Assembly (NCBI GenBank): GCA_964016885.1
Contig: OZ024742.1
Span: 71,796,001-71,860,000, forward strand
Direction: 5' to 3'
DNA from: Eledone cirrhosa
Lineage: Eukaryota
Length of the DNA stretch: 64,000 bases
The notes under the pieces: model-generated
Seen by the model: only the letters and a program-made list of their open reading frames with translations
Databases searched by the model: none
What the model was told of the DNA's origin: nothing
Made by a program: the position numbers and the translations under genes
Shown: positions 6,009-64,000 of the stretch, one piece after another
Layout: each line of letters begins with the position of its first letter
How positions within the stretch are numbered: position 1 is the stretch's first letter

Positions 6009-7550
6009 TTACTCTTCTGTATGAACACCAACATGTATATTTAACTGACTTTTTTGGGAGAATAACTTACCACAGATGTTACAATGATATGGCTTCTCAT
6101 GTATATGAAGACGTTTGTGTATGGTTAAATTACCACTCTGAGAAAATGATTTTCCACAGATATCACAGTGATATGGCTTCTCCCCCGTATGAATGCGTTT
6201 ATGTCTAGTTAGGTCACCTTTTACAGAAAATGAATTACCGCAGATATTGCAGTGATATGGTCTCACTTTTGTATGAATGCATACATGTACAGTTAAGTTA
6301 TTTTCAGTAGAGAATGATTTATCACAAATATCACAGTGATATGGTTTTCCTCCTGTATGAATGAGTTTGTGTTGAGTTAATTGACGATTTTGAGAGAAAG
6401 ATTTACTACAGATATCACAAAGAAATGGCTTCTCTCCTGTATGAATGCGTACATGTATAGTTAAATTATTTAACTGTGAGAATGATTCACCACAGATATC
6501 ACAGTGATATGGTTTTTCTCCTGTATGAATACGTTTGTGTCTAGTTAAGTCACTATTTCCAGTGAATGATTTACCACAGATATCACAGAGATATGGTCTC
6601 AATCCTGTATGAATACGGGTGTGTCTAGCTAGGTCACCTTTTACAGCAAATGATTTACTACAGATATCACAGTGATATGGCTTTTCTCCTGTATGAATAC
6701 GCTTGTGTCTAGTTAGGAAAACATTACCAGAGAATGATTTGCCGCAGACATCACAGGGATATGGTTTCTGTCCAGTATGAATGTGTGTATGTTTAATTAG
6801 GTTACCTTTATCAGAGAATGATTTATCACAGATATCACAGTGATATGGTTTTTCTCCTGTATGAACACGTTTGTGTCTAGTTAGATCACTTTTTCCAGTG
6901 AATGATTTACCACAGATATTGCAGTGATATGGTTTCTCTCCTGTATGAATGTGTGTATGCTTAGTGAGGTTATCTTTTTGAGAGACTGAAATATTACAGA
7001 TATCACTGTGATGTGTTTTCCCTATATGAATGAGAGTGTGTTTAGTTAGGGTAGCTTTATGAGAGAATGATTTACCACAGATATCACAGTGATATGGTTT
7101 CTCTCCTGTATGAATACGTTTGTGTCCAGTTAGGTTACTTTTTTGATAGAATGACTTCTTACAGATATCACAGTGATATGGTTTCTCTCCTGTATGAATG
7201 CGTATATGAGGAGTGAGCTCACTCTTTTGAGAGAATGATTTCTTGCAGATATCACAGTGATATGGTTTCTCTCCTGTATGAATACGTTTGTGAGTAGTTA
7301 GATTACCTTTTTGGTAGAATGATTTCTTACAGATATCGCAGTGATATGGTTTCTCTCCTGTATGAATAAGTTTGTGTATAGTTAGGTTACCTTTTTCAGA
7401 GAATGATTTACCACAAATCTCACAGGGGTATGGTTTCTCTCCTGTCTCCTCTATTATATAACCAGGAAAATCGATACTTTTAGACTCTTTTTTACTAGTA
7501 ATCTGGCTTTCACATAATCCATTTTCCATAATTTTTCTTTCAAAAGACAT
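6009..7550 (-). CDS. C2H2 zinc-finger protein, 513 aa, 17 fingers (6th degenerate), single coding exon
   Basis: Uninterrupted ORF of CxxC...HxxxH repeats with TGEKPY linkers; short N-terminus MENGLCESQ; probable splice acceptor near 7882. Confidence 0.93.
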
Positions 7551-16559: not shown

Positions 16560-18784
16560 ATTGGACTGGAGTATATATAAGAAGATTCAGCGCAACTGAC
16601 GGACTTGGTTGGAATCTTCATTTTGAACTCTTTAAATCGGAAAATTCCTCAACTTCGCGGTGGAATCTATCGTGACGATGCCCTTTTTACTGTCTTACAC
16701 TGTAACATAGTAAACCTTATATTATCAAGAATAATATACTTGATCTATTTAAGCACCTTAACCTAAAAATTGAATTTGAGAACAACGTTAAATTATCTAA
16801 CTTCCTAGATATATCCCTTAATCTAGACACCGGACTATATTACCCATACCATAAGGATAATGAAAACCTAAATTATGTAAATTTGAAATCAAACCACCCT
16901 ATTAATGTTAAAACTGCTATAGTCAGAAATGTTGAAAAAAGAATTTCTAATCTATCTTCTAATAAACTTATCTTTGACGCTAAAGTCAATTATTACAATA
17001 ATGCGCTATCCAGAGCTGGTTATCCAGACAGAATTAAATACACTAATGAAACCAATCATGGCTGAACTTATAGTAATATAGCTAGTTATAAGCATTCCAA
17101 TAACATAAAGAGGAGACCTAGATATAAAAATATTATTTGGTACAACACTCCTTTTTCTTTTTCTATTATTAGTAATATTCCTAAATTATTTTTTAGGGCT
17201 TAGATAAGTGCTTCCCTCCTTCACATATTTATAGTAAGATCTTTAATAAGCATACAATTAAATTCTCTTATTCCACCACTTCCAACATTTCTAACATTAT
17301 CTCAAAACATAATACTAAAATATTAAATAATAACTCATATTCATCCAACCCTTAGCGTCATAGTAATAACACTATAAGGCCCGACGTCAATGTAAACTCT
17401 AGACATAAATATAAATACGACGTCAAACGTAATTTCGATGAATGCTCCTAGACAAGATAACTTAATATAAATACGACGTCAAACGTAATTTCGATGAATG
17501 CTCCTAATAATAATCTAAATCAGGAAACATTAGCACCTCCTTTAGTTAATTTCTCCACTACATTTCCTTCTATAAATAATTCTGGGTCACTTGCAAATAA
17601 CTCTGTTAATAACACTAATCGTAAATGCAATTGCCCTAATAGAACTAAATGTCCTCTTAATAATTACTGTCTCGATAAAAATTTAGTATACGAATGTAAG
17701 GTGATAACTAGTACCAATTCTTATACCTACATTGGCTCTACTTCTACTTCCTTTAAGGCAAGATTATATAACCATTCTTCGTCTTTTAAATACCCACTTA
17801 AAAGAACAAACACTGCACTCTCAGAACTCACCTAGTCCTTAAAAGACAAAAACATTAATTACAAAATTTCTTGGCGTAAAATATGCAATGCTTCTCCATA
17901 TTCCAACGCTTCCATATCTAGAACTTGTAATTTATGTCTAGCGGAAAAATTTACCATTATCTCTAATTTTAACTCTATAATAAATAGACGCACAGATTTA
18001 TTTTCGCTTTGCATCCATAAATCGCTTAGGTCATTTCACGAAGTATACAGCTAATATCTTACTCCATAATTAAAATTAAAAACTTTTTCTCACACATATA
18101 TATCTTTTTCTCACATATACCCCTTTTTTCTCGCATATTTCAGTACATTCTACAATTTTCATTCATACTATGACGTTTTTGGTCCACTCATTTTTTAATT
18201 CACTATAGCAAACTCCTTTATCTTCTTGGGGATACAATTTTTTTTTTTTATTGTTCATCTTTATATCATTTCTTCTCAATATTACTTTTTCTTAAGCCGC
18301 TATATTTCCCAATTTTTTACTTCAAATCTATTAATATTAACATTAAGTGAATTTTGTAAACAAAGTTTGACGTCATTTTTTCTTCCTCGTTTTTTTCTTT
18401 TTTCTTCTCTCTTTCCGTGCTTGTCTTTGCTTAAATAATTACTTTTTCACAGAAACACCTTTTCAATTACAATCTATTTAAACAAACTAGGACCCTATAT
18501 CGTCTTCTAAGCTTATAAATCATTTAATTTTATTTTTATTCACCTTATCTTATTTTACTTTATTTTATCTTAATAATACATTTTAATAAAACTTTTTCGC
18601 ACATCTTAAATAAATCCTTCAGTATATAAACCCTAAATAAATAGTATACTTAATTTCTATATCTGTAATCATAAACATCTTCAATCATAAACCTCATCAA
18701 TTTTTAATTATTTAATTTATTTATAAATTTACAACCGTTTTTTTTCAGTTATTTTTCAGTGGAGACAGCGTTTTTCAGTTTAAA

Positions 18785-19152: not shown

Positions 19153-19925
19153 AAAAACAAATAACGAAACGAAATTAAATTTCGTTTCGTTTGTAACTCA
19201 CTTTTGTATGACTGACGCTTAAACAATTAAGTTAAAAATGTACATCCACATATGTATACTGAAATACTAGTATGCATATGAATACACACACGTGTACATA
19301 TGTAGATGTACCGAGTTTTTCACTGGACACTTTACTGTGAGTGTCCAGCTATTCTGTATGTAAACACACAGACAAACCGGTTTTTAGAGTCATACTGGTT
19401 TTCGAGGAAACACCTTTCCTCTATTCTCCAGAAAGCCAGACAGGAATATTGGACTAGTTTCGATGTTGTTACATCTCATCAGCAATATTTACCTATCTTC
19501 CGGCCTTTCTAGAGAATCGTAAAAGCACATATGGTTATATGCTTTTTCTATGAAAATTAGTAGTGGGCAGACTAATTTGCATAGAGCGTGAGTACGTACC
19601 GGTTCAGCGGAGACGATAAAAACAAATAACGAAACGAAATTAAATTTCGTTTCGTTTGTAACTCACTTTTGTATGACTGACGCTTAAACAATTAAGTTAA
19701 AAAATGTACATCCACATATGTATACTGAAATACTAGTATGCATATGAATACACACACGTGTACATATGTAGATGTACCGAGTTTTTCACTGGATACTTTA
19801 CTGTGAGTGTCCAGCTATTCTGTATGTAAACACACAGACAAACCGGTTTTTAGAGTCATACTGGTTTTCGAGGAAACACCTTTCCTCTATTCTCCAGAAA
19901 GCCAGACAGGAATATTGGACTAGTT
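19153..19925 (-). mobile_element. Retrozyme-like tandem repeat, family A (465-nt unit, ~1.7 copies)
   Basis: Unit starts at 19153 and 19618; contains a canonical hammerhead; flanked by (TA)n. Confidence 0.8.
19445..19489 (-). ncRNA. Type I minimal hammerhead ribozyme
   Basis: Minus strand: AATATTG CTGATGA GATGT aaca ACATC GAAA CTAG TC CAATATT. 7-bp stem I, 5-bp stem II, palindromic ACTAGT stem III, GUC cleavage triplet. Confidence 0.92.
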
Positions 19926-19986: not shown

Positions 19987-21274
<1,288 letters not shown>

Positions 21275-21275
<1 letters not shown>

Positions 21276-21518
21276 AAATTCCAAACATGGAAGCAGTGCC
21301 TAGAAAGAAAGGGTCTCAAAGTCAACCTGACAAAGACTAAGGTTCTTGTAAGTAAACGAGAAAACAGAACCCAGATCCCCTCAGGGAAATGACCTTGCTC
21401 AGTATGTAGGAAAGATGTAGGTAGGAACTCCATCCTCTGCCCCAAATGCAAACAATGGGTACACAAGAGATATAGTAGGATCTCAGCAAGGCTAACTAAG
21501 AATGTAGGCTTCATATGT
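21275..21518 (+). mobile_element. RTE LINE fragment
   Basis: WKQCLERKGLKVNLTKTKVLV...CSVCRKDVGRNSILCPKCKQWVHKR, same family as 42650-43600. Confidence 0.7.
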
Positions 21519-22175
21519 AGAGAGAAGCTAACAGTCTATTTCACGCTGTTTTGCGTTCATCAGAGTCACGCAGCCCCTGCTTCCACCGAAAATGATAGAA
21601 GCTGGATTCTTATAGAATTCCAGTAATAATCAGGAGCTGATTATATAGAGCGATTGCGGGTTCAGCAAAAATTAGGTATTAGGATTGGTGCTCTGAAATA
21701 GCGATGTATACATGAGTGTATGTATAGTATATTTGGCAATATACCGTATGTTTAATTAAAAACATTTAGAAGACCATACGCTATCGGTTTTAAAGTAGTG
21801 AATATGTCACTTACTTCTTTTCGACGAAAGAAGCTATATTGCCAAATATACTATACATACATTCATGTATACATCGCTATTTCAGAGCACCAATCCTAAT
21901 ACCTAATTTTTGCTGGACTGGCAATCGCTCTGTATAATCAGTTCCTGATTATTACTGGAATTCTATAAGAATCCAGTTTCTATAATTTTCGGCGGAAGCA
22001 GGGGATGCGTGATTCTGATGATCGCCAACCAACTTGAAACAGACTGTTAGCTTCTCTCCCTTCTTTCGCCGAAAAGAAGTAAGTGACATAGTCACTACTT
22101 TAAAGCCGATAGCGTATGGTCTTCTAAATGTTTTTAATTATACATACGGTATATTGCCAAATATACTATACATAC

Positions 22176-22180
<5 letters not shown>
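21519..22180. mobile_element. Retrozyme-like family B: two head-to-head, differently permuted copies of a ~315-nt unit
   Basis: 21519-21834 is the reverse complement of sequence in 21835-22180. The right copy repeats tatattgccaaatatactatacatacatt at both ends (21835, 22150). Each copy has CTGATGA...GAAA. Confidence 0.8.
21525..21570 (-). ncRNA. Minimal hammerhead ribozyme (family B)
   Basis: Minus strand: ct CTGATGA ACGC aaaaca GCGT GAAA TAGACTG TT agct; stem I is short. The plus-strand copy at ~22010-22053 has a decayed stem II. Confidence 0.7.
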
Positions 22181-22211
<31 letters not shown>

Positions 22212-22384
22212 GAAAGGTATAGAAAGTATTGTAGCAAGAAGCCAACAGTATTCCATAATATATATATGGAGTGAAATTTAAGTAAGTTAATTACTATAAT
22301 TTTCTTATTTTACGTCTTTCATATATATATATGAAAAACGTAAAATAAGAAAATTATAGTAATTAACTTACTTACTTAAATTTC

Positions 22385-22466
22385 ACTCCAACTAATTAGT
22401 TTCTGAAAGGGGATTTACATAGTCTTCAAATGGAGATCATGGAGAAACCTTTCTTCATCAGGGAGT
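22385..22466 (-). ncRNA. Type I hammerhead ribozyme (family C, copy 1)
   Basis: Reverse complement of the motif at 23464-23545. Confidence 0.75.
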
Positions 22467-22914
22467 CATTCTCGGCTAAGGTTCCTGGCGATGCGCGGAC
22501 ACAGGAAACTTATACAAAAATAATTCAGTGGATGGAAAAGAGCAAGCACGGACTAAATTCCAAGACATTGAAAAAAATCACTGCCTTCTTGGCCGGTGGC
22601 AAATTCAAAAGAATCAATCACGTGACATCGACGTTAATCAGTGAGGAGTGGGGTTTTAAAAAGACAGTAGCCAAGCCAATACTATGAACCATAGTAGTAA
22701 TTTAGGCAAATTTTTGCTCAACAAAATAATTTGGAGATAATTATAAAGAATTAGTATATCTACCAACATATTTATACAGATGTATACTTACGCTAGCAAA
22801 TATATAGGTTTTGTCTTAGTAACTTTGTGGTTCAATGCAAAGGGATGCAGAACAATTATATGAAAGACGTAAAATAAAAAAAATTATAGTAATTAACTTA
22901 CTTACTTAAATTTC

Positions 22915-22996
22915 ACTCCAACTAATTAGTTTCTGAAAGGGGATATACATAGTCTTCAAATGGAGATCATGGAGAAACCTTTCTTCATCAGGGAGT
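22915..22996 (-). ncRNA. Type I hammerhead ribozyme (family C, copy 2)
   Basis: Reverse complement of the motif at 23464-23545. Confidence 0.75.
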
Positions 22997-23463
22997 CATT
23001 CTCGGCTAAGGTTCCTGGCGATGCGCGGACACAGGAAACTTATACAAAAATAATTCAGTGGATGGAAAAGAGCAAGCGCGGACTAAATTCGAAGACATTG
23101 AAAAAAGTTACTAAGACAAAACCTATATATTTGCTAGCATAAGTATACATCTGTATAAATATGTTGGTAGATATACTAATTCTTTATAATTATCTCCAAA
23201 TTATTTTGTTGAGCAAAAATTTGCCTAAATTACTACTATTGTTCATAGTATTAGCTTGGTTACTGTCTTTTTAACACCCCACTCCTCACTGATTAACCTC
23301 GATGTCACGTGATTGATTCTTTTGAATTTGCCACCGACCAAGAAGGCAGTGATGTTTTCAATGTCTTTGAATTTAGCCCGCGCTTGCTCTTTTCCATCCA
23401 CTGAATTATTTTTTGTATAAGTTTCCTGTGTCCGCGCATCGCCAGGAACCTTAGCCGAGAATG

Positions 23464-23545
23464 ACTCCCTGATGAAGAAAGGTTTCTCCATGATCTCCAT
23501 TTGAAGACTATGTCTATCCCCTTTCAGAAACTAATTAGTTGGAGT
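23464..23545 (+). ncRNA. Type I hammerhead ribozyme (family C, copy 3)
   Basis: ACTCC CTGATGA a GAAAGG...CCTTTC a GAAA CTAATTAG TT GGAGT. Stem I 5 bp, palindromic stem III, GUU triplet. Confidence 0.78.
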
Positions 23546-23710
23546 GATATTTAAGTAAGTAAGTTAATTACTATAATTTTCTTATTTTACGTCTTTCATA
23601 TAATTGTTCTGCATCCCTTTGTATTGAACCACAAAGTTACTAAGACAAAACCTATATATTTGCTAGCGTAAGTATACATCTGTATAAATATGTTGGTAGA
23701 TATACTAATT

Positions 23711-23778
<68 letters not shown>

Positions 23779-24851
23779 AAAAGAGGATGGTTGTGTAGTT
23801 GCTAGTAAAATTAAGCTTTAAAATGGAATGAGAATAAGAAAGCAAGAACGGGGCGGGGAGGGGGGGGGGGTCAGTTTTCCTCATGAGTTGTCTAATGGGG
23901 ATCTCGGATATTTCAACACTTTAAAGACAATATATCTACCCCCAGAGCATTCAATAACAGGGTAAGTTATTGGGAAAAATAGAGGAGGGAGAGAAGGAAA
24001 ATAGAAGGGAAAAGAGGAAAAGGGAAGAAAAGAGAAACAGAAAAAAACAAGAAACTGAAGAATGGGCAGCAACTGAAGGCAAGAGAATCCAAGACCACAG
24101 CGGTAACAGAACATAAGTTCAAGAGCGTGTGATCGAACGAAAAAAGACGTGATCGATCCAAGCGAGTGTAAATGAGAAAAAGACTGCTAGAAGGTCAGGC
24201 GGGGGAAACATTGAGGTGGCAGACAGAGAGAGGGTGAGTGAAAGTGAGAGGAAGAAAGAGAGGAAGAGTAGATAGTAACGAAATAGGTAGGTAGAGGGAG
24301 AGAGAAGACGGGTCACAGCGAAACATGGTAAAATATATGGAGAATAGGATGGCTATGTAGTTGCTAGTAAAGTTAAGCTTAAAAATGGAATGAGAATAAG
24401 AAGAAAGCAAGAACAGGGGACAAAACAAGATCGTAACAACTAACCACAGCAATATTAAATTAAATAACAACTTAACCAGCGACAGACGGATTTTACGAAT
24501 GAGCTAAGCAGATATTTCAATCATATACTAAATTTATAGAAGAACACCCCTCGATTTCCTTGGGAAAAACTTTTTTCCTCTTATTTTTGTGTGCTATCAT
24601 AGCCTCCAAGATACTCACAATTACTTGGTGGCATTTCTTTCGCTACATTAATCATGTTTGGGTCACCAAATGAAGCTAACTTTTATTTATTGTGAAATAA
24701 ATACCAACAATTCTGGTTGAATATATATCACTTCAGCAAAAAGGAAAAAATATGATTACTTTGAATCGTAAATATGTTTGATTATAGTGTTCATGAATGA
24801 ATATAGTGTTCAGTAAAGCCCCAGTGTTGTGCACGAATCCTTTATTATATA

Positions 24852-25554
24852 CTAGCTGAGGTATTCGGCTTCGCTCGGGAGAACAGTTAAGAGAAGACAG
24901 AAAAAGAGAAAACGACTGTATTGGACGTGTTGTCTGGTATGAGTTGGGACCGTAATGTGTGTGTGTATGTTAGAGAACAACCATAAAACTTCCTTATTAG
25001 GCTGGGGGAGTAAACTATCGATTAAATGGTAGCATTGGACTTGGATTTTAAATGTGAAATAACCATAGTCAGTATGATCTTTTTCAGCTCCAAAGGACGT
25101 CATCTGAAACACAGCAATATACCACATAACATTGCTTCTGAAGTGTTTAGCTTCGTTAGTACGGTCTGTAAGTAGTATATGGATAAATGCTGGAGGGTAA
25201 ATTAATTTCAAATAGTATCAATTTTTCTTTGTTCTGTAAAACGAATTTATAAAAGCTAATGCAATATTGTTAAACCTTCCTCGAGACCAAAGGATCTACA
25301 ATTTGAGCCGTTTCTAGACTTTCTTGGGAGGGACGTTACTCTCTCTCTCTTTCTCTGAATATCTAACTCTTTAATTGTATCTCTCTTTCTGTATAATGGC
25401 CTATCTCTCTCTTTCTGCCTCTCCTTCAGTGTCTGTCTCTCTCTTTAGATGTGTGAGTATATATTTGTGTGTGTGTGTGTGTATATGTATGTAGTTTCTG
25501 TGTGATTCAACCAACCAACCAATAAACATCTTTCTTTTATATTATATATATAGA
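24852..25554 (-). mobile_element. Non-autonomous Helitron with a Rep fragment
   Basis: Minus strand A|TCTAT 5' end; 3' cccgagcgaagccg hairpin followed by CTAG|T; internal FQMTSFGA...FKIQVQCYHLIDSLLP Helitron motif. Confidence 0.85.
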
Positions 25555-26221
25555 TATGTAATACATTTATCTAAGTATTCACTGTTGTATAAAAAGAAAT
25601 ACAATACAAACAAAAGCGCAAACAAATATAATACAAAGGGAAATGAAAACAAGCAAAAGGAAAAGAAAGAGTAAAGAAATAAACAAACGGTTAACACACA
25701 CAACTGAGACCACATACAACAAAAGGCAGGCGAAAGTGGTGGACAACTGAGCTGCTACCAGAGTAAAGAGTAAAAGATAACAGTATCGCAAGGAGCACTG
25801 AGAAACCTCTCTAATAATTTTTGAGGCAAGCTAGCACACTCGCGCCATTTCCCCAGGTGATGCGCTGGAACAACGAAGCACCATGGAATGTTCCCGTAAA
25901 TGAAAAGTGACAAGTTCTAGTTGATAGTACATAGCTAGCTGGCTGGTGTAGTAGTAAACCATTATGTATCCAGACTGTGTTGTGTAGCGAAGAGGCAGAG
26001 AACAGTGAGTTAGGGCCAGATGACAGCCTATTTATAATAGCCGATAGTTATTTAACTGATAGATAACAGATGACTCCAGAATATGTTCTCCATCGTATCA
26101 CTAGTGCTGTAAATCCTACCAGCAGGGAAAATTTATCTATTGTCTTCCCTACGTCGCAGATCACTTACTTGGTACCCATGAGAAAACATTTCTATTGCTA
26201 TATATATATATATATATATAT

Positions 26222-30265: not shown

Positions 30266-31663
<1,398 letters not shown>

Positions 31664-46573: not shown

Positions 46574-47833
46574 CTAATTCTCTTGTTTTATTGGTTCAAT
46601 TTCATGTACCTTTTGTTTGTGATTAGTTAAAATTTTCTTCTTAGTGTAACCTTTACCACAGATATCACAATTATATGGTTTTACACCTGTATGAATAGGT
46701 TCATGACGAGTTAAATTCTGTTTATCAGCATATGATTTACCACAAATATCACAACGGTATGGTCTTACACCTTTATGGATACGAACATGAAGTGTTAAAT
46801 GAGTATTCTGAGAGAATGATTTGCCACAGATGTCACAGTGGTATGGTTTCTCACCTGTATGAATACGTACATGTTGAGTTAAATGAGCATTCTGAGAGAA
46901 TGTTCTACCACAAATATCACAGCTGTATGGTTTCTCACCAGTGTGCATACGTATATGAGTAGTTAGTTTATCACTATCAGAGAATCCTTTTCCACAGACA
47001 TCACAGGAGTATGGTTTATCTCCAGTGTGAAGTTGTTTGTGACGAGTTAATTTATTGCATTCAGAGAAAGTTTCTCCACAGATATCACAATGATATGGTT
47101 TCTCACCAGTGTGAATACGTCTATGTATAGTCATACCACCTCTCCCAGAGAATGCTTTCCCACAGATATCACAATGGTATGGTTTTTCAATGGCATGAGT
47201 GTATTTGTGTCTTTTCAAATAAGAACTTCGGGCAAATGTTCTACCACAAACACCACACTGATATGGTTTCTCTCGTGTGTGAATATGCATGTGATCAGTT
47301 AAACTATCACGTAGAGAAAATGTTTTGCCACAGATATCACAATGATGTGGTTTCTCACCTGTGTGAGTATATTTGTGTCTACTTAAATTTCCAAATTGAG
47401 TGAATCCTCTCCCACAAATATCACAGTGGTATGGTTTTTCATCAGAATGAGTACGCTTATGAGTATTCAAAGAACCGCTCTGAGTGAAAGTTTTGTTACA
47501 GATATTGCAGCTGTAGGCTTTCTTGTTTTTTTTATTAAATTTGTGTTTAGTTAAATGAGAACTCTGAGAGAGTACTTTACCACATTCTATATCCTTTTGA
47601 TCTGAATGAATACCTTTAGAAATAGAATAGTTCTTGGCAGCTATTTTACTGTCTTTTTTAGAATATTTCAGTTTTAATCTTGTAAGAAGTACATTATATT
47701 GTGTGAATGTCTTCTTATGTATGTCAAAGTGGTATGATTTCTTCTGTGTATCTCCATATGTATCATGAGATATGTCACTAGGTTCTGACTTTATCTCATC
47801 ACAAACCAGACGTTTGCACAGTTTATCCTCCAT
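46574..47833 (-). CDS. C2H2 zinc-finger protein, 419 aa, 11 intact fingers
   Basis: Intact ORF; N-terminus MEDKLCKRLVCDEIKSEP; TGEKPY-linked fingers. Confidence 0.93.
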   Translation of the reverse strand: MEDKLCKRLVCDEIKSEPSDISHDTYGDTQKKSYHFDIHKKTFTQYNVLLTRLKLKYSKKDSKIAAKNYSISKGIHSDQKDIECGKVLSQSSHLTKHKFNKKNKKAYSCNICNKTFTQSGSLNTHKRTHSDEKPYHCDICGRGFTQFGNLSRHKYTHTGEKPHHCDICGKTFSLRDSLTDHMHIHTREKPYQCGVCGRTFARSSYLKRHKYTHAIEKPYHCDICGKAFSGRGGMTIHRRIHTGEKPYHCDICGETFSECNKLTRHKQLHTGDKPYSCDVCGKGFSDSDKLTTHIRMHTGEKPYSCDICGRTFSQNAHLTQHVRIHTGEKPYHCDICGKSFSQNTHLTLHVRIHKGVRPYRCDICGKSYADKQNLTRHEPIHTGVKPYNCDICGKGYTKKKILTNHKQKVHEIEPIKQEN

Positions 47834-58022: not shown

Positions 58023-61000
58023 ATAGGAACAAGTATGACCCCGACGGCAGAGCTCAAGCTGTTTCGACAGCTAATTCTGGACTAAATAATAATTTTTAGC
58101 CTGGTAAATAAATAGCCGAACTTCTCAGGGGGTAATTCCATATATGAGAAGATAGTAATTGTCAAAAGGATTGGTCAAAAGTTTGTTGTAAAGACAGATG
58201 ATTCTATCATAGCATTTAGTGGGAGGTAGGGGTAGCTGAACTTGCCTGTAGAACAAAGAGGGAGTGGGGGAAACCCAGTCAGGCGTTGAAAGTGAAACCT
58301 ATACAGCAGATTCTAAGGATAGTGTATAGAAGGTCGAAAAGAGTGTACTGGAGAAGAGAGGGGGGGGGTGTGAAAGAATAGGTAAATTGAAAGGGAGTAA
58401 ACAAAAAAGCCATTATAAAAATGAGGAAATAAATATATAAAAAAACAATTTCTGGTTACTACTCCTTCCCCACAATCACCAAATCTCTAATTGGTATTGC
58501 TAAGCTATAGAAAAGTTTAATAGGTGGAGAAAAATACTAAATATGAGATTGTAGTGAAAGAATTTTATAAAGCCATCTTTACAGGGGGTCCAACACCACT
58601 GCTATAGTTAGTAGTAATCAGCCAATGCTGTCTTACAATGACAGGTTAATATGTTGAGGGCAAACATATTAAAAAACTAATACAAAATATTAATTCAGAA
58701 TACTAATACATAAATACTAATACAAGAATGCTAATGCAAAAATACCACTAAGAAATTTAGAAACCACAGAAATGGAGCAGCAACCAGAAAGAAAGCAATT
58801 ATCTGGGGTCTAACACATCTGCTATAAAAAGCGTAATCGGCCAATTCTATCTTAAAATTAGTGGGGTGGGGGTACTGAGGCTACAGAGGACCGATGTGCT
58901 GCATCAGGGTGGGCGAAAAGGTGAAAACAAAAACAAGGAAAGAGATCTGGGATGGAAGGACTAGGAAGAGATGGAGGGAAGAAGGAAATATAGAGGAAAA
59001 GATAAAAAAAATAAAGTTACGTCTACCTTTGTAAGCAGGGGTTACCCCTTACAAAATCGGCAAGTGGGGTGTTTCAGCCCTTGTCTACCCCCCCGGGTCA
59101 TTATGGGGTTTGAGGGCGAGGTAAGTCCTACGCAATCTGTGTTTGCATGCAGTTACCAGTTCGTCTTTCTTGTTTAGGAGTTGGTCCTTCGAAAACAGCA
59201 TTTGTAATGTTTCCTCCGAGCATAAGTTACATGGACGGCGTCCTCCCATGTAAGAGTTAGCTCTGGACAGTAAGCTCCAAGTGAGATTGTAGGTTATATT
59301 ATTATCTTTGAGGTCCCAGATGTGGCCCGAGAGTGTAGTGGCATGACGCCAGGCTGGGTTTCGGAAAGTATGTCTGTGTAGGTAGCGCCGGGTCTTGAAG
59401 TCACAAGCGGTTAATCCTATATAAGCTTTGTTGGAGGTGTCCGTCCTCACGTTGCACTGGTAGATCACATTACGATCTCGGCATCTGTTGTTGAGGGGGC
59501 AAAGGGATCTATCAGGACAGTTACACCTCCCGGTCGGCTCTCCACTGCTGTCTAGGTTATTTCTTCCATAGGGGTTGAGTTTTTTGTTGTTAGAGGAGAC
59601 GATGTTTTGTGCAAAGTTAGGAGAGTTTGATGGTGTTTTTGTTGATTATGTTGTGGTAGCGGTGTTGTAGTGGGAAGTGTTTTTCGATGAGCCTAAAGAA
59701 GATTTTCCCGATAGGTGTTGTCACCTCGGCATTGTGGGGAGGATTGAACCACGTTACGTTGCGTGAGCGGCGGTGTCGCCTGCTGGTTCCGCTAATGGAA
59801 GCTGGATAATAGGATATTTCCTCCCGGAAGCCACTCCGCTTGAGGGCCTGGTTGTAATAAGGTGCATGTTCGTTGAATATCTGCTCATTAGCGGACAAAC
59901 GAGATATGCGGAGGGAGATGTTTTTAACCAGGTTATTGGTGATGTTTCTAGGATGGTTAGAGCGGCGGTGGATGTAATGCAGGTTGTCGTTTGGTTTCCT
60001 GTATGGGTAGTACAGATCATTATTGAGGTTAAGGGTAATGTCCAGGAAGTTTACTCGGGTTAGGGATGTTTGTAGGGTTATTTTAAATCCCCAGTCGCGG
60101 AAGAAGCTGATTAATTGTTTACGGACCCGGTCTGTACTACTGGGGTTGTACCCTTTGAGGGTAAGGAGCCCATCATCACGGTACAATCCACCACCGAATG
60201 CAGGAAACATTTCGGTGAGTTTAAATAGTAGGAATAATCCTATAAGATCTGTGACCTCAGCCGAATTGGTCGCGCCCATACTGACGTCGAAGGGGGAGTC
60301 AGGAGCTCTCTTTATCCATTTGGAGTTGTAGAAAAATAGGACTGTCTTCCTTGCGTGGAGGATGATATTCTTTCCTGGTCGGTGATGGGCGTGAGTGTTT
60401 CGGCAAAGTCCAAGGCGGCCGTAAGGAGCGGTAAGGTAATTGAAGCATAGTAACTCTCTATGTCAAACTAGATGAATTTTGTGTCTCGTTTGTCCTCCAT
60501 ATTGCTGAACCATGAGATTACTTCCTGGGTGTTCACCCATAGGCTAAGTCTCGCGTTTTGCTTAACTTTTGGTATAACGCGGTCTAGGATTTTTTTACTG
60601 ATTCTCCCTATGTTGGACTTCGTTGGGTTTATAAGCCTGATGGATGGTTTACGGTCCAAGTCGGATTTGTGGTCCTTCAGTGTGAAGTAGGGAGTCAGTG
60701 GGTCTAGGGGTTTAGTGCGGTCGGCAACCCCGAGGCTGGAGGTAATTTGTTGTCCATCTCGATTTATGTCCTCGATACTTGAATGGTTAGCCTTTTTATA
60801 GGTGGAGTTTAGGCTGCTCCTGATCAGTGTGTGGTATCTGTCGGGGTTGACGAAGTAGAGGTTTCCAGTTTTGTCCGAGTGCACCATGATGTCGTTGGTG
60901 TTTTCATACCCTGTTAATTTGCTATGGAGTTTTTGTAGGAATCTGTTGTGTCTTGGTTTGAATTTAATGCTCTTGACCAGTTGGAAAAGGTCATTCTCGA

Positions 61001-62152
61001 AGGGTGAGAGCATAGGGTTTGGAGGGGGAGATTTGTAGGTATTAAATCCGAATCTCTCTTTGGTATCGAAGTCCTGATTGTCGCAATATCTGTCGTAGAA
61101 AAAATTTCTCCATCTTAGTCTTTTCGCAAAAAGGTCGATTTTTTGCGTGAGCATCCGAAGGTAAAGTTTTCTCGGTGGAACTGGGATGTTTTTGGTGGAG
61201 AAGTCGATGTTGTGTTTTCACATGGTACGGGTGAAAAAACTTTAGCTTAGCGGAAAATTTTAAGATAGAATTGGCCGATTACGCTTTTTATAGCAGATGT
61301 GTTAGACCCCAGATAATTGCTTTCTTTCTGGTTGCTGCTCCATTTCTGTGATTTCTAAATTTCTTAGTGGTATTTTTGCATTAGCATTCTTGTATTAGTA
61401 TTCTTGTATTAGTATTCTGAATTAATATTTTGTATTAGTTTTTTAGTATGTTTGTCCTCAACTTATTAACCTGTCATTGTAAGATAGCATTGGCTGATTA
61501 CTACTAACTATACCACTGGTGTTAGACCCCCTGTAAAGATAGCTTTATAAATTTCTTTCACTACAATCTCATATTTAGTATTTTTCTCCACCTATTAAAC
61601 TTTTCTATAGCTTAGCAATACCAATTAGAGATTTGGTGATTGTGGGGAAGGAGTAGTAACCAGAAATTGTTTTTTTATATATTTATTTCCTCATTTTTAT
61701 AATGGCTTTTTTGTTTACTCCCTTTCAATTTACCTATTCTTTCACCCCCCCCCCCCCCTCTCTTCTCCAGTACACTCTTTTCGACCTTCTATACACTATC
61801 CTTAGAATCTGCTGTATAGATTTCACTTTCAACGCCTGACTGGGTTTCCCCCACTCCCTCTTTGTTCTACAGGCAAGTTCAGCTACCCCTACCTCCCACT
61901 AAATGCTATGATAGAATCATCTGTCTTTACAACAAACTTTTGACCAATCCTTTTGACAATTACTATCTTCCCATATATGGAATTACCCCCTGAGAAGTTC
62001 GGCTATTTATTTACCAGGCTAAAAATTATTATTTAGTCCAGAATTAGCCGTCGAAACAGCTTGAGCTCTGCCGTCGGGGTCATATTTGTTCCTATTACCC
62101 ACTCTACTACCCTAAGCATACTTTGGTGCGTTCCTTACCACATTTCCTTTGT
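58023..62152 (-). mobile_element. Near full-length Penelope-like element (Naiad-like) with ~835-bp inverted pseudo-LTRs
   Basis: Broken ORF 61223-59085: STKNIP N-terminus, DKTGN, RLINP, MGATNSAEVTDLIG, YRDD, SNHP, WFNPP, IYQC..YIGLT GIY-YIG, CNLC. 58023-58859 is the reverse complement of 61256-62094; (TA)n on both sides. Confidence 0.92.
61985..62080 (+). ncRNA. Hammerhead-like motif in PLE pseudo-LTR (mirror copy at 58038-58133, minus)
   Basis: ACCCC CTGAGAA G ttcggcta...tagccgt C GAAA C...G TC GGGGT; the core deviates from CUGANGA. Confidence 0.6.
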
Positions 62153-63195: not shown

Positions 63196-64000
63196 CTAAT
63201 TCTCTTGTTTTATTGGTTCAATTTCATGTACCTTTTGCTTGTGATTAGTTAAAATCTTCTTCTTAGTATAACTTTTACCACAGATATCACAATGATATGG
63301 TTTTACACCTGTATGAGTAAATTTGTGACGATTTAAACTCTGAATAATAGCAAATGATTTGCCACAAATATCACAACAGTATGGTTTCTCACCTGTGTGA
63401 ACAGGTTTATGACGAGTTAAATTCTGATTATCAGCATATGATTTACCACAAATATCACAATGGTATGGTCTTACACCAGTGTGAATTCGTATATGGATTG
63501 TTAAATGACCTTTCTGAGAGAATGATTTGCCACAGATATCACAGTGGTATGGATTATCTCCTGTATGAATACGTACATGTTGAGTTAAATGAGAATTCTG
63601 AGAGAATGTTTTACCACAAATATCACAGCGGTATGGTTTCTCACCAGTGTGCATACGAATGTGTGTAGTTAGTTTATCACTATTAGAAAATCTTTTCCCA
63701 CAGACATCACAGGGGTATGGTTTATCTCCAGTGTGAAGTTGTTTGTGACGAGTTAACTTATTATATTCAGAGAAAGTTTCTCCACAGATATCACAATGAT
63801 ATGGTTTCTCACCAGTGTGAATACGTCTATGTATAGTCATACCACCTCTCCCAGAGAATGCTTTCCCACAGATATCACAATGGTATGGTTTTTCAATGGC
63901 ATGAGTGTATTTGTGTCTTTTCAAATAAGAACTTCGGGCAAATGTTCTACCACAAACACCACACTGATATGGTTTCTCTTCAGTGTGAATATGCATGTGA
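63196..64000 (-). CDS. C2H2 zinc-finger protein, 5' part outside the window, 9 fingers visible; close paralog of 46574-47833
   Basis: Open frame to the window edge; identical C-terminus [19 protein letters not shown]; shared 3' UTR. Confidence 0.9.
   Translation of the reverse strand, partial: HMHIHTEEKPYQCGVCGRTFARSSYLKRHKYTHAIEKPYHCDICGKAFSGRGGMTIHRRIHTGEKPYHCDICGETFSEYNKLTRHKQLHTGDKPYPCDVCGKRFSNSDKLTTHIRMHTGEKPYRCDICGKTFSQNSHLTQHVRIHTGDNPYHCDICGKSFSQKGHLTIHIRIHTGVRPYHCDICGKSYADNQNLTRHKPVHTGEKPYCCDICGKSFAIIQSLNRHKFTHTGVKPYHCDICGKSYTKKKILTNHKQKVHEIEPIKQEN

Follow-up and report, generated by a model that had tools for sequence, protein, structure and literature searches.

Do the hammerheads of Penelope-like elements (PLEs) and of retrozymes cut RNA in vivo, and how are the head-to-head insertions of PLEs made? 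Both questions are debated, and both are raised by an insertion in the window analysed here, a 64-kb stretch of the genome of Eledone cirrhosa (contig OZ024742.1). The original prediction had called three hammerheads in a 530-nt unit, arranged in tandem and inverted, and had suggested that a fragment at 22268-22324, which begins with the first base after the predicted cut, records an RNA 5' end made by the ribozyme.

The insertion in the window

The predicted arrangement was confirmed: the insertion is built from a non-coding unit of 529/530 nt (copies 97% identical) with the same hammerhead core in all three copies. It consists of a minus arm with two hammerheads and a plus arm with one, joined head-to-head, with (TA)n at both outer ends. 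The unit was numbered from the G after the predicted cut (c1, position 23541), which puts site A at c62 (23602) and site B, 115 nt away, at c178 (23717). The minus arm (22328..23104, minus strand, 777 nt, 1.47 units) has its 3' end, site A, at (TA)n and its 5' end at the inverted junction. It carries type I hammerheads at 22385..22466 (core at 22461, predicted cut 22390/22389) and 22915..22996 (core at 22991, predicted cut 22920/22919), both on the minus strand, and thus a complete cut-to-cut monomer of 530 nt (22390..22919, minus strand), which has no ORF of more than 95 codons and folds more stably than 100 of 100 shuffles (z −3.65). The head-to-head junction (23102..23106) lies within an A run common to both arms. 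The plus arm (23104..23717, plus strand, 614 nt, 1.16 units) has one hammerhead, and its 3' end is site B, joined to (TA)31, so that the right end of the insertion moves from the predicted 23715 to 23717. The "tail" from site A to site B (23603..23717, plus strand) contains a long hairpin (~23652-23704); this region has a z of −3.8, with 0 of 200 shuffles equally stable, and is a candidate recognition element.

The solo arm of 58 nt (22268..22325, plus strand) runs from the first base after the predicted cut to site A and is flanked on both sides by (TA)n. It does start at GGAGTG, as had been noticed; it ends at 22325 and is not isolated, a short TA run being all that separates it from the minus arm. 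Because the two differ by a 4-nt indel and one substitution, the 58-nt piece probably arose as an insertion of its own. The T at 22267 is compatible with the (TA)n flank as well as with U17 of the element, and the fragment therefore starts at the cut or one base before it. Taken alone, this fragment could be background, as about 1 in 3-4 ends in the cut window (see below) would be.

Several other features were seen in the window. Another head-to-head insertion adjoins at 21520-22189, with a hammerhead-like core at 21563 (minus strand) and a decayed core near 22015 (plus strand), and a compact canonical hammerhead with a GUC triplet, of a different family, lies at 19452-19482 (minus strand). 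The retrozyme insertion sits inside a cluster of 84-bp-period arrays typical of C2H2 zinc-finger genes (6051-7445, 30325-31411, 46652-47465 and 63274-63895). The GC content is 0.33 in 22001-24000, and no tRNA was found in 20000-26000. A frameshifted PLE remnant at 59085-61217 (minus strand) comprises N-terminal, RT-thumb and GIY-YIG pieces of the Hydra type (DKT, CxCX5C), and a second one, detected by tblastn at 16847-18024 (plus strand), comprises the thumb and the endonuclease end; Pfam gave no match for three PLE frames of the window, including the remnant at 59085-61217.

A hammerhead with two core-flanking insertions

All three window hammerheads show the type I order CUGANGA ... GAAA ... 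NUH and the predicted GUU triplet, and each has a stem I of 5 bp, a stem II of 6 bp, 51 nt between the core halves and a palindromic helix III. GUU is a weaker yet allowed hammerhead triplet. In the plus-arm copy (23464..23545, plus strand, core 23469-75, predicted cut 23540/23541), stem I is formed by 23464-68 and 23541-45 and stem II by 23477-82 and 23520-25, with an internal loop and a second helix on stem II; an extra base is found at 23476 and an extra A at 23526, followed by GAAA (23527-30), and the 12-nt palindrome occupies 23529-40. This palindrome is perfect, ends exactly at U17, i.e., at the cut, and has a self-pairing energy of −11.4 kcal/mol.

Rfam gave no hammerhead match at the gathering score in the window, likely because of the long helix II and the two insertions. 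A hammerhead descriptor gave four matches in 64 kb on both strands, three of which are these copies; since there are just four, and since stem II covaries, the motif is not due to chance. The covariation, proposed at the outset as a check across genomic copies, was seen among 248 distinct motifs from 260 loci. Because alignment by sequence alone put stem II out of register, its pairs were located by their fixed distances from the core. Stem II was 94.5% paired; 1000 shuffles reached no more than 83.4%, and sliding the strands no more than 65%. Pair 2 is A-U in 153 motifs, U-A in 53, C-G in 31 and G-C in 5, and pair 5 is G-C in 155 and U-A in 51. These counts are not independent events because the copies are related; the haplotypes indicate a minimum of four double changes that arose independently. 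Helix III does not vary and is therefore uninformative for covariation. In a subfamily with one added base on each side of stem I, a U and a G are co-inserted (15 motifs).

The collection tolerated at most one change, and the exact CUGAUGA occurs in 197 of the 248 motifs. The base after A9 is C in 188, A in 56 and U in 4, the pair G10.1-C11.1 is G-C in 232, and the base preceding G12 is A in 247. The "A.A mismatch" originally placed at the base of stem II has to be redrawn as two insertions around this normal pair. Likewise, the supposed loop II of ~37 nt is an internal loop plus a second helix: the 35-38 nt of this region fold with a median z of −2.5 against base shuffles (−0.9 for the window copy alone), and the internal loop measures 6-7 x 7.

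Much of this architecture has been described for PLE hammerheads. Passages of PMC4209133 report the extra base after A9 (A9/10.1) as a hallmark, together with the pair G10.1-C11.1, a long helix II, a helix I of 5 bp, a palindromic helix III suited to dimer cleavage, and covarying subfamilies. The retrozyme hammerhead differs from that account in the invariant extra A between C11.1 and G12 and in the 6-7 x 7 loop with its second helix. No description of an insertion before G12 was found in the main texts searched, passages of PMC3088659 included. The family adds to the natural hammerheads one in which the extra A preceding G12 is invariant and for which self-cleavage is predicted.

An abundant non-coding family

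In the genome of 3.0 Gb the anchor that follows the cut was matched 9,766 times, which gives at least 9,766 motif copies; a DNA search with the unit gave 2,991 candidates. The unit is 510-556 nt long. Monomers are 72-99.8% identical and have no conserved open frame; in 55 of them the longest stop-free frame has 37-107 codons, and an RT/GIY-YIG ORF is absent from the unit. A protein-like antisense frame was considered and rejected, its openness not being conserved among monomers. Contigs from three runs of one sample, aligned to the stretch, show no more than that the family is abundant. Tandem arrays of the unit of several kb were noticed at G000:C1:152493891-152499368 and C1:94666548-94672301.

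With the metazoan non-LTR retrozymes, as characterized in parts of PMC7229834 and of 10.64898/2026.07.22.740005, the family shares a non-coding tandem unit with one type I hammerhead, a low GC content (<50%), the lack of a tRNA-derived part, thousands of copies, mostly as monomers to short multimers, and PLEs in the same genome; both sources regard retrozymes as PLE derivatives. A unit of 510-556 nt is above the typical 150-450 bp (PMC7229834) and within the range of 51-972 bp (10.64898/2026.07.22.740005). The insertion is a copy of an abundant non-coding animal non-LTR retrozyme, a class that is itself known and that the original prediction had not named; retrozymes of the cephalopod type are not described in the literature searched.

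Two fixed 3' ends, one per arm

From contig 1, 140 loci were picked by an exact site-A or site-B end (60 + 80), the partner end being left free, and 238 distinct arms were kept after matches that were shorter than 39 nt, below 88% identity or TA-like had been dropped. The 3' end is at site A (103 arms) or site B (120) in 223 of the 238 arms, with TA next in 208 of these 223. Inverted pairs are A+B in 75 cases, B+B in 2 and A+A in none, and 14 more have a non-standard end; the arms of a pair thus use one site each in 75 of 77 pairs (P ~1e-20 against independent use). The 5' ends (n = 219) abut the inverted partner (165), a TA run (22) or other DNA (32), and at most inverted junctions the overlap is 0-8 nt. 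Two fixed 3' ends, one per arm, in (TA)n are a signature of PLE insertion.

The layout of an inverted copy plus tail and the bias for (TA)n are on record for PLEs in passages of PMC8557442 (the layout also in PMC3846280), and for the anole PLE it has been reported that in vitro both strands are nicked and the RT starts at two internal sites (PMC11167929, in part). The retrozyme insertion has in common with the insertion unit of EN+ PLEs, as given in the relevant passages of these three sources, the 5'-truncated inverted copy, the tail on one arm, junction microhomology, (TA)n and two RT start sites. It differs in having no ORF, in a tail of 115 nt rather than 30-40 nt (PMC8557442), and in the strict one-site-per-arm rule counted here.

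5' ends at the predicted cut

Genome-wide patterns were designed that demand non-native bases upstream of the anchor; the rows were classed by eye, and the strength of the filter varied among the control windows. An initial cut-site pattern was dominated by the subfamily with the extra G (~79 of 89 rows), and the pattern was then redesigned. The cut window (c529-c1) gave 195 matches, and 90 of 100 among the matches listed were true junctions, which corresponds to ~175 of the 9,766 anchors. The next 3 nt upstream gave 33 true junctions of 42, a window 13-15 nt upstream of the cut ~50 of 52, and the window c2-4 112 matches with 70 of 100 true among the matches listed (~78). The rate in the cut window is 3.1x and 2.3x that of its neighbours (Fisher P 3e-14 and 1e-10), and immediately upstream of it the 5' ends fall ~5-fold. 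A fourth, distant control window (29 matches) is ~2-fold below the cut window, its denominator being uncertain. After filter correction, stops in the cut window amount to ~3% of the anchors, against 0.8% expected. The enrichment of 5' ends of the GGAGTG type, for which the original prediction had suggested a count, is thus found genome-wide.

The largest peak lies 5-7 nt downstream of the cut (window c5-8, 336 matches, double counts included); on contig 1, 28 arms start in c5-8, with half as many anchors, against 23 in the cut window. In an unbiased sample of arms, 4 of ~220 stop in the cut window where 1.8 are expected (P 0.10); the highest bin is c1-20, and the second-highest hazard bin is in the hairpin of helix II. 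Read-through of a cut site was seen in 57 of the 74 A arms and in 42 of the 74 B arms. Since most arms read through, the usual template would be an uncleaved multimer or circle.

In 3 of 74 pairs both arms stop no more than 8 nt from the cut, where 0.6 are expected (P 0.012). In the minimal elements L152, L157 and L176 the two arms run from c1 to A and from c1 to B, and loci of the L157 type are exact palindromes of 178 + 61 nt (c1 to B and c1 to A). Something stops both cDNAs at c1, and a cut RNA end would be the simplest cause.

The alternative is that element and route are the same and that the pile-up reflects a stall of the RT at RNA structure, either at U17, which bounds the intermolecular 12-bp duplex of helix III, or at the entry into stem I. 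Because the 12-nt palindrome ends exactly at U17, stalling predicts the same position as a cut. The stability of the self-paired palindrome favours a stall, as do the hazard bin in helix II, the read-through in most arms, and the TT kept before the G in 28 of the 90 cut-window junctions. A T precedes the G in 56 of the 90 and could equally be a further templated base or an untemplated one; 34 of the 90 junctions lack any templated T, which speaks against a stall. So do the sharp drop to background within 3 nt upstream, the blunt A+B palindromes with both arms starting at the cut, and the preservation of the core and of the shifted stem I register across subfamilies 72-99% identical, for which a mere stall site has no need. 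We regard a stall as unlikely and a cut at the predicted site as clearly the more probable of the two. It is likely, to judge from these junctions, that the retrozyme RNA is cut by its hammerhead in a minority of template molecules, and likely that the excess of starts at and just after the cut records RNA cutting in living cells before insertion by a PLE-type enzyme. Of the original claim of a ribozyme-made RNA 5' end, the ends at the predicted cut stand; the cleavage is what we infer from them, a stall predicting the same position and the top peak lying 5-7 nt downstream.

A second alternative takes the family for a DNA-level repeat (a satellite or fold-back element) in which cut-site ends arose later by deletion of palindrome centres. 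Long perfect palindromes are unstable, which counts for this proposal. It does not fit 3' ends that are fixed while 5' ends vary, nor the compensatory changes in an RNA helix, nor the surroundings of the cut-site starts, about 10 of 90 of which abut a TA run directly and many others unrelated unit positions. We disfavour it as very improbable.

Among related systems, the anole PLE inserted in vitro without needing its hammerhead, and reads starting at the hammerhead cut were absent (PMC11167929), whereas the genomic ends of the retrozyme are enriched at the cut; eight of nine dimers of Xenopus retrozymes were without cleavage in vitro (10.64898/2026.07.22.740005). The two-site rule and ends at the cut were not found described in the main texts of the literature searched.

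Fold-backs near the cut

Fold-backs were found at 84 loci at a weak 8-nt palindrome just downstream of the cut, at 20 at the cut itself (spacer 0-3 nt, without homology) and at 6 at the stronger 12-nt palindrome just upstream. At an 8-nt palindrome in mid-unit none were detected: the pattern, too short to avoid chance matches, gave 36 matches against 34 for the control, and 0 of the 15 checked belonged to the family. The frequency of fold-backs follows the position relative to the sense-strand cut, not the strength of the palindrome.

This bears on a further proposal, namely that self-priming by fold-back, with antisense RNA as template, produces the head-to-head arms and that the cut site is irrelevant. 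Palindromes at inverted junctions led to such a proposal for the Penelope elements of rotifers (PMC3846280, in part), and perfect fold-backs are common in the present family. Self-priming does not account for the dependence on the sense-strand cut just described, for outer ends that lie at different fixed sites in all but two pairs, or for the distance between the arm 5' ends, which are within 25 nt of each other in only 19 of 74 pairs, most junctions joining differing unit positions. We consider it quite improbable.

A candidate mobiliser

At one locus (L224, G000:C1:82322800-82326300) the endonuclease end of a PLE runs directly, with no TA between them, into the unit (c242 to site B), and the other arm consists of the 3' end of this PLE, terminating at the site A of the PLE, so that the A+B rule is kept across the chimera. 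This is what a template switch would give, to which the single locus points; the alternative is a later deletion. The one chimera also points to a Hydra-clade PLE as candidate mobiliser of the retrozyme.

The family of the L224-type PLE is young (1,407 candidates, the best 40 of the 1,407 at 96-97%), and its two ends, ~133 nt apart, occur one per arm in all 8 readable of 30 loci. Single copies (L274, L288, L268) show DKT, a CxCX5C linker, CxxC and CxH around the EN end, a C-terminal GIY-YIG and the target (TA)n, features that, as given in passages of PMC8557442, they share with the Hydra clade of C-terminal EN+ PLEs. Neither Pfam nor PDB had a match to the 609-aa frame of the candidate PLE. 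A sense-strand scan of the 3' regions of 12 copies, at loci that exclude the N-terminus and RWK region, revealed no convincing canonical hammerhead, and the tail of the candidate PLE has no significant similarity to that of the unit (38 of 500 shuffles score as high). L224 is the only unit-PLE fusion among 260 loci screened with five ORF pieces, and none of 29 further copies of that PLE has the unit in place of the fusion.

An autonomous element with the unit as pLTR was not found among the flanks and ORF ends examined. If the unit were the pLTR of an unsampled autonomous PLE, the copies would be its 5'-truncated ends; layout, tail and target are indeed those of PLE ends (PMC8557442, in part), and the searches covered the best 40 candidates or the first 100 matches listed. 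Long arms, by contrast with this expectation, wrap into a further unit copy (79 distinct cut-to-cut monomers; 8 matches spaced ~530 nt on contig 1). No ORF-bearing flank recurs on the 5' side of the unit, 156 flanks sharing only unrelated repeats, and at 19 of 20 GIY-YIG ORF ends examined direct continuation by the unit is absent; at two of these ends a unit copy follows several hundred bases on, behind the PLE's own 3' UTR. This origin of the copies is improbable.

PLE ORF pieces near unit copies were also considered as autonomous parents and rejected, most being neighbours in the same TA tracts. In a different PLE family (L214, L248, L021, L106) the 3' UTR starts with a 13-nt word, which in L214 is identical to the sequence that immediately precedes site A in the unit; at two of these four loci the PLE end is followed at once by a copy of the unit.

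Proposed mechanism and its meaning

With a probability of about three in four, we propose from the genomic copies that the retrozyme is moved in trans by PLE machinery, which would join two target-primed cDNAs at their 3' ends, the hammerhead cut limiting some of them. Tandem copies would be transcribed to a multimeric, perhaps circular, RNA. A PLE protein with RT and GIY-YIG domains would nick both strands of a TA tract, and each nick would prime reverse transcription on the sense RNA at its own internal site, A or B. Both cDNAs would extend toward the RNA 5' end, running off at the cut if the RNA is cut and reading through if it is not. Cleavage would most likely occur in a dimeric form, via the palindromic helix III. 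The cDNA 3' ends would then be joined, bluntly or via the nearest short self-complementary word, which would explain the head-to-head junction and the main peak 5-7 nt downstream of the cut. On this model the short solo arm of the window would derive from a cDNA that was primed at site A and terminated by run-off at the cut.

A more comprehensive reading, which we put forward tentatively and at slightly less than even odds, combines all parts: a variant hammerhead with two core-flanking insertions would cleave in the germline and leave a countable genomic record; a Hydra-clade PLE would prime a cDNA from each DNA strand, both on the same sense RNA and each at its own fixed site, and would join their 3' ends; the blunt palindromes of 61 + 178 nt would be the product of a cut monomer; and L224 would be a template switch that names the mobiliser.

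The metazoan retrozyme papers, in the parts consulted, contain no head-to-head two-site insertions, cut-site 5' ends or PLE chimera. To these accounts the present family adds a genome-wide count with controls, the asymmetry of the fold-backs, a variant of the core and a candidate partner. Statistically, its ~10,000 copies bear the imprint of a barrier that acts at the cut on both arms at once, and the same copies provide a near-absolute rule of one site per arm. They also define a small test system, consisting of a 530-nt RNA, two start sites, a TA target and a young candidate enzyme.
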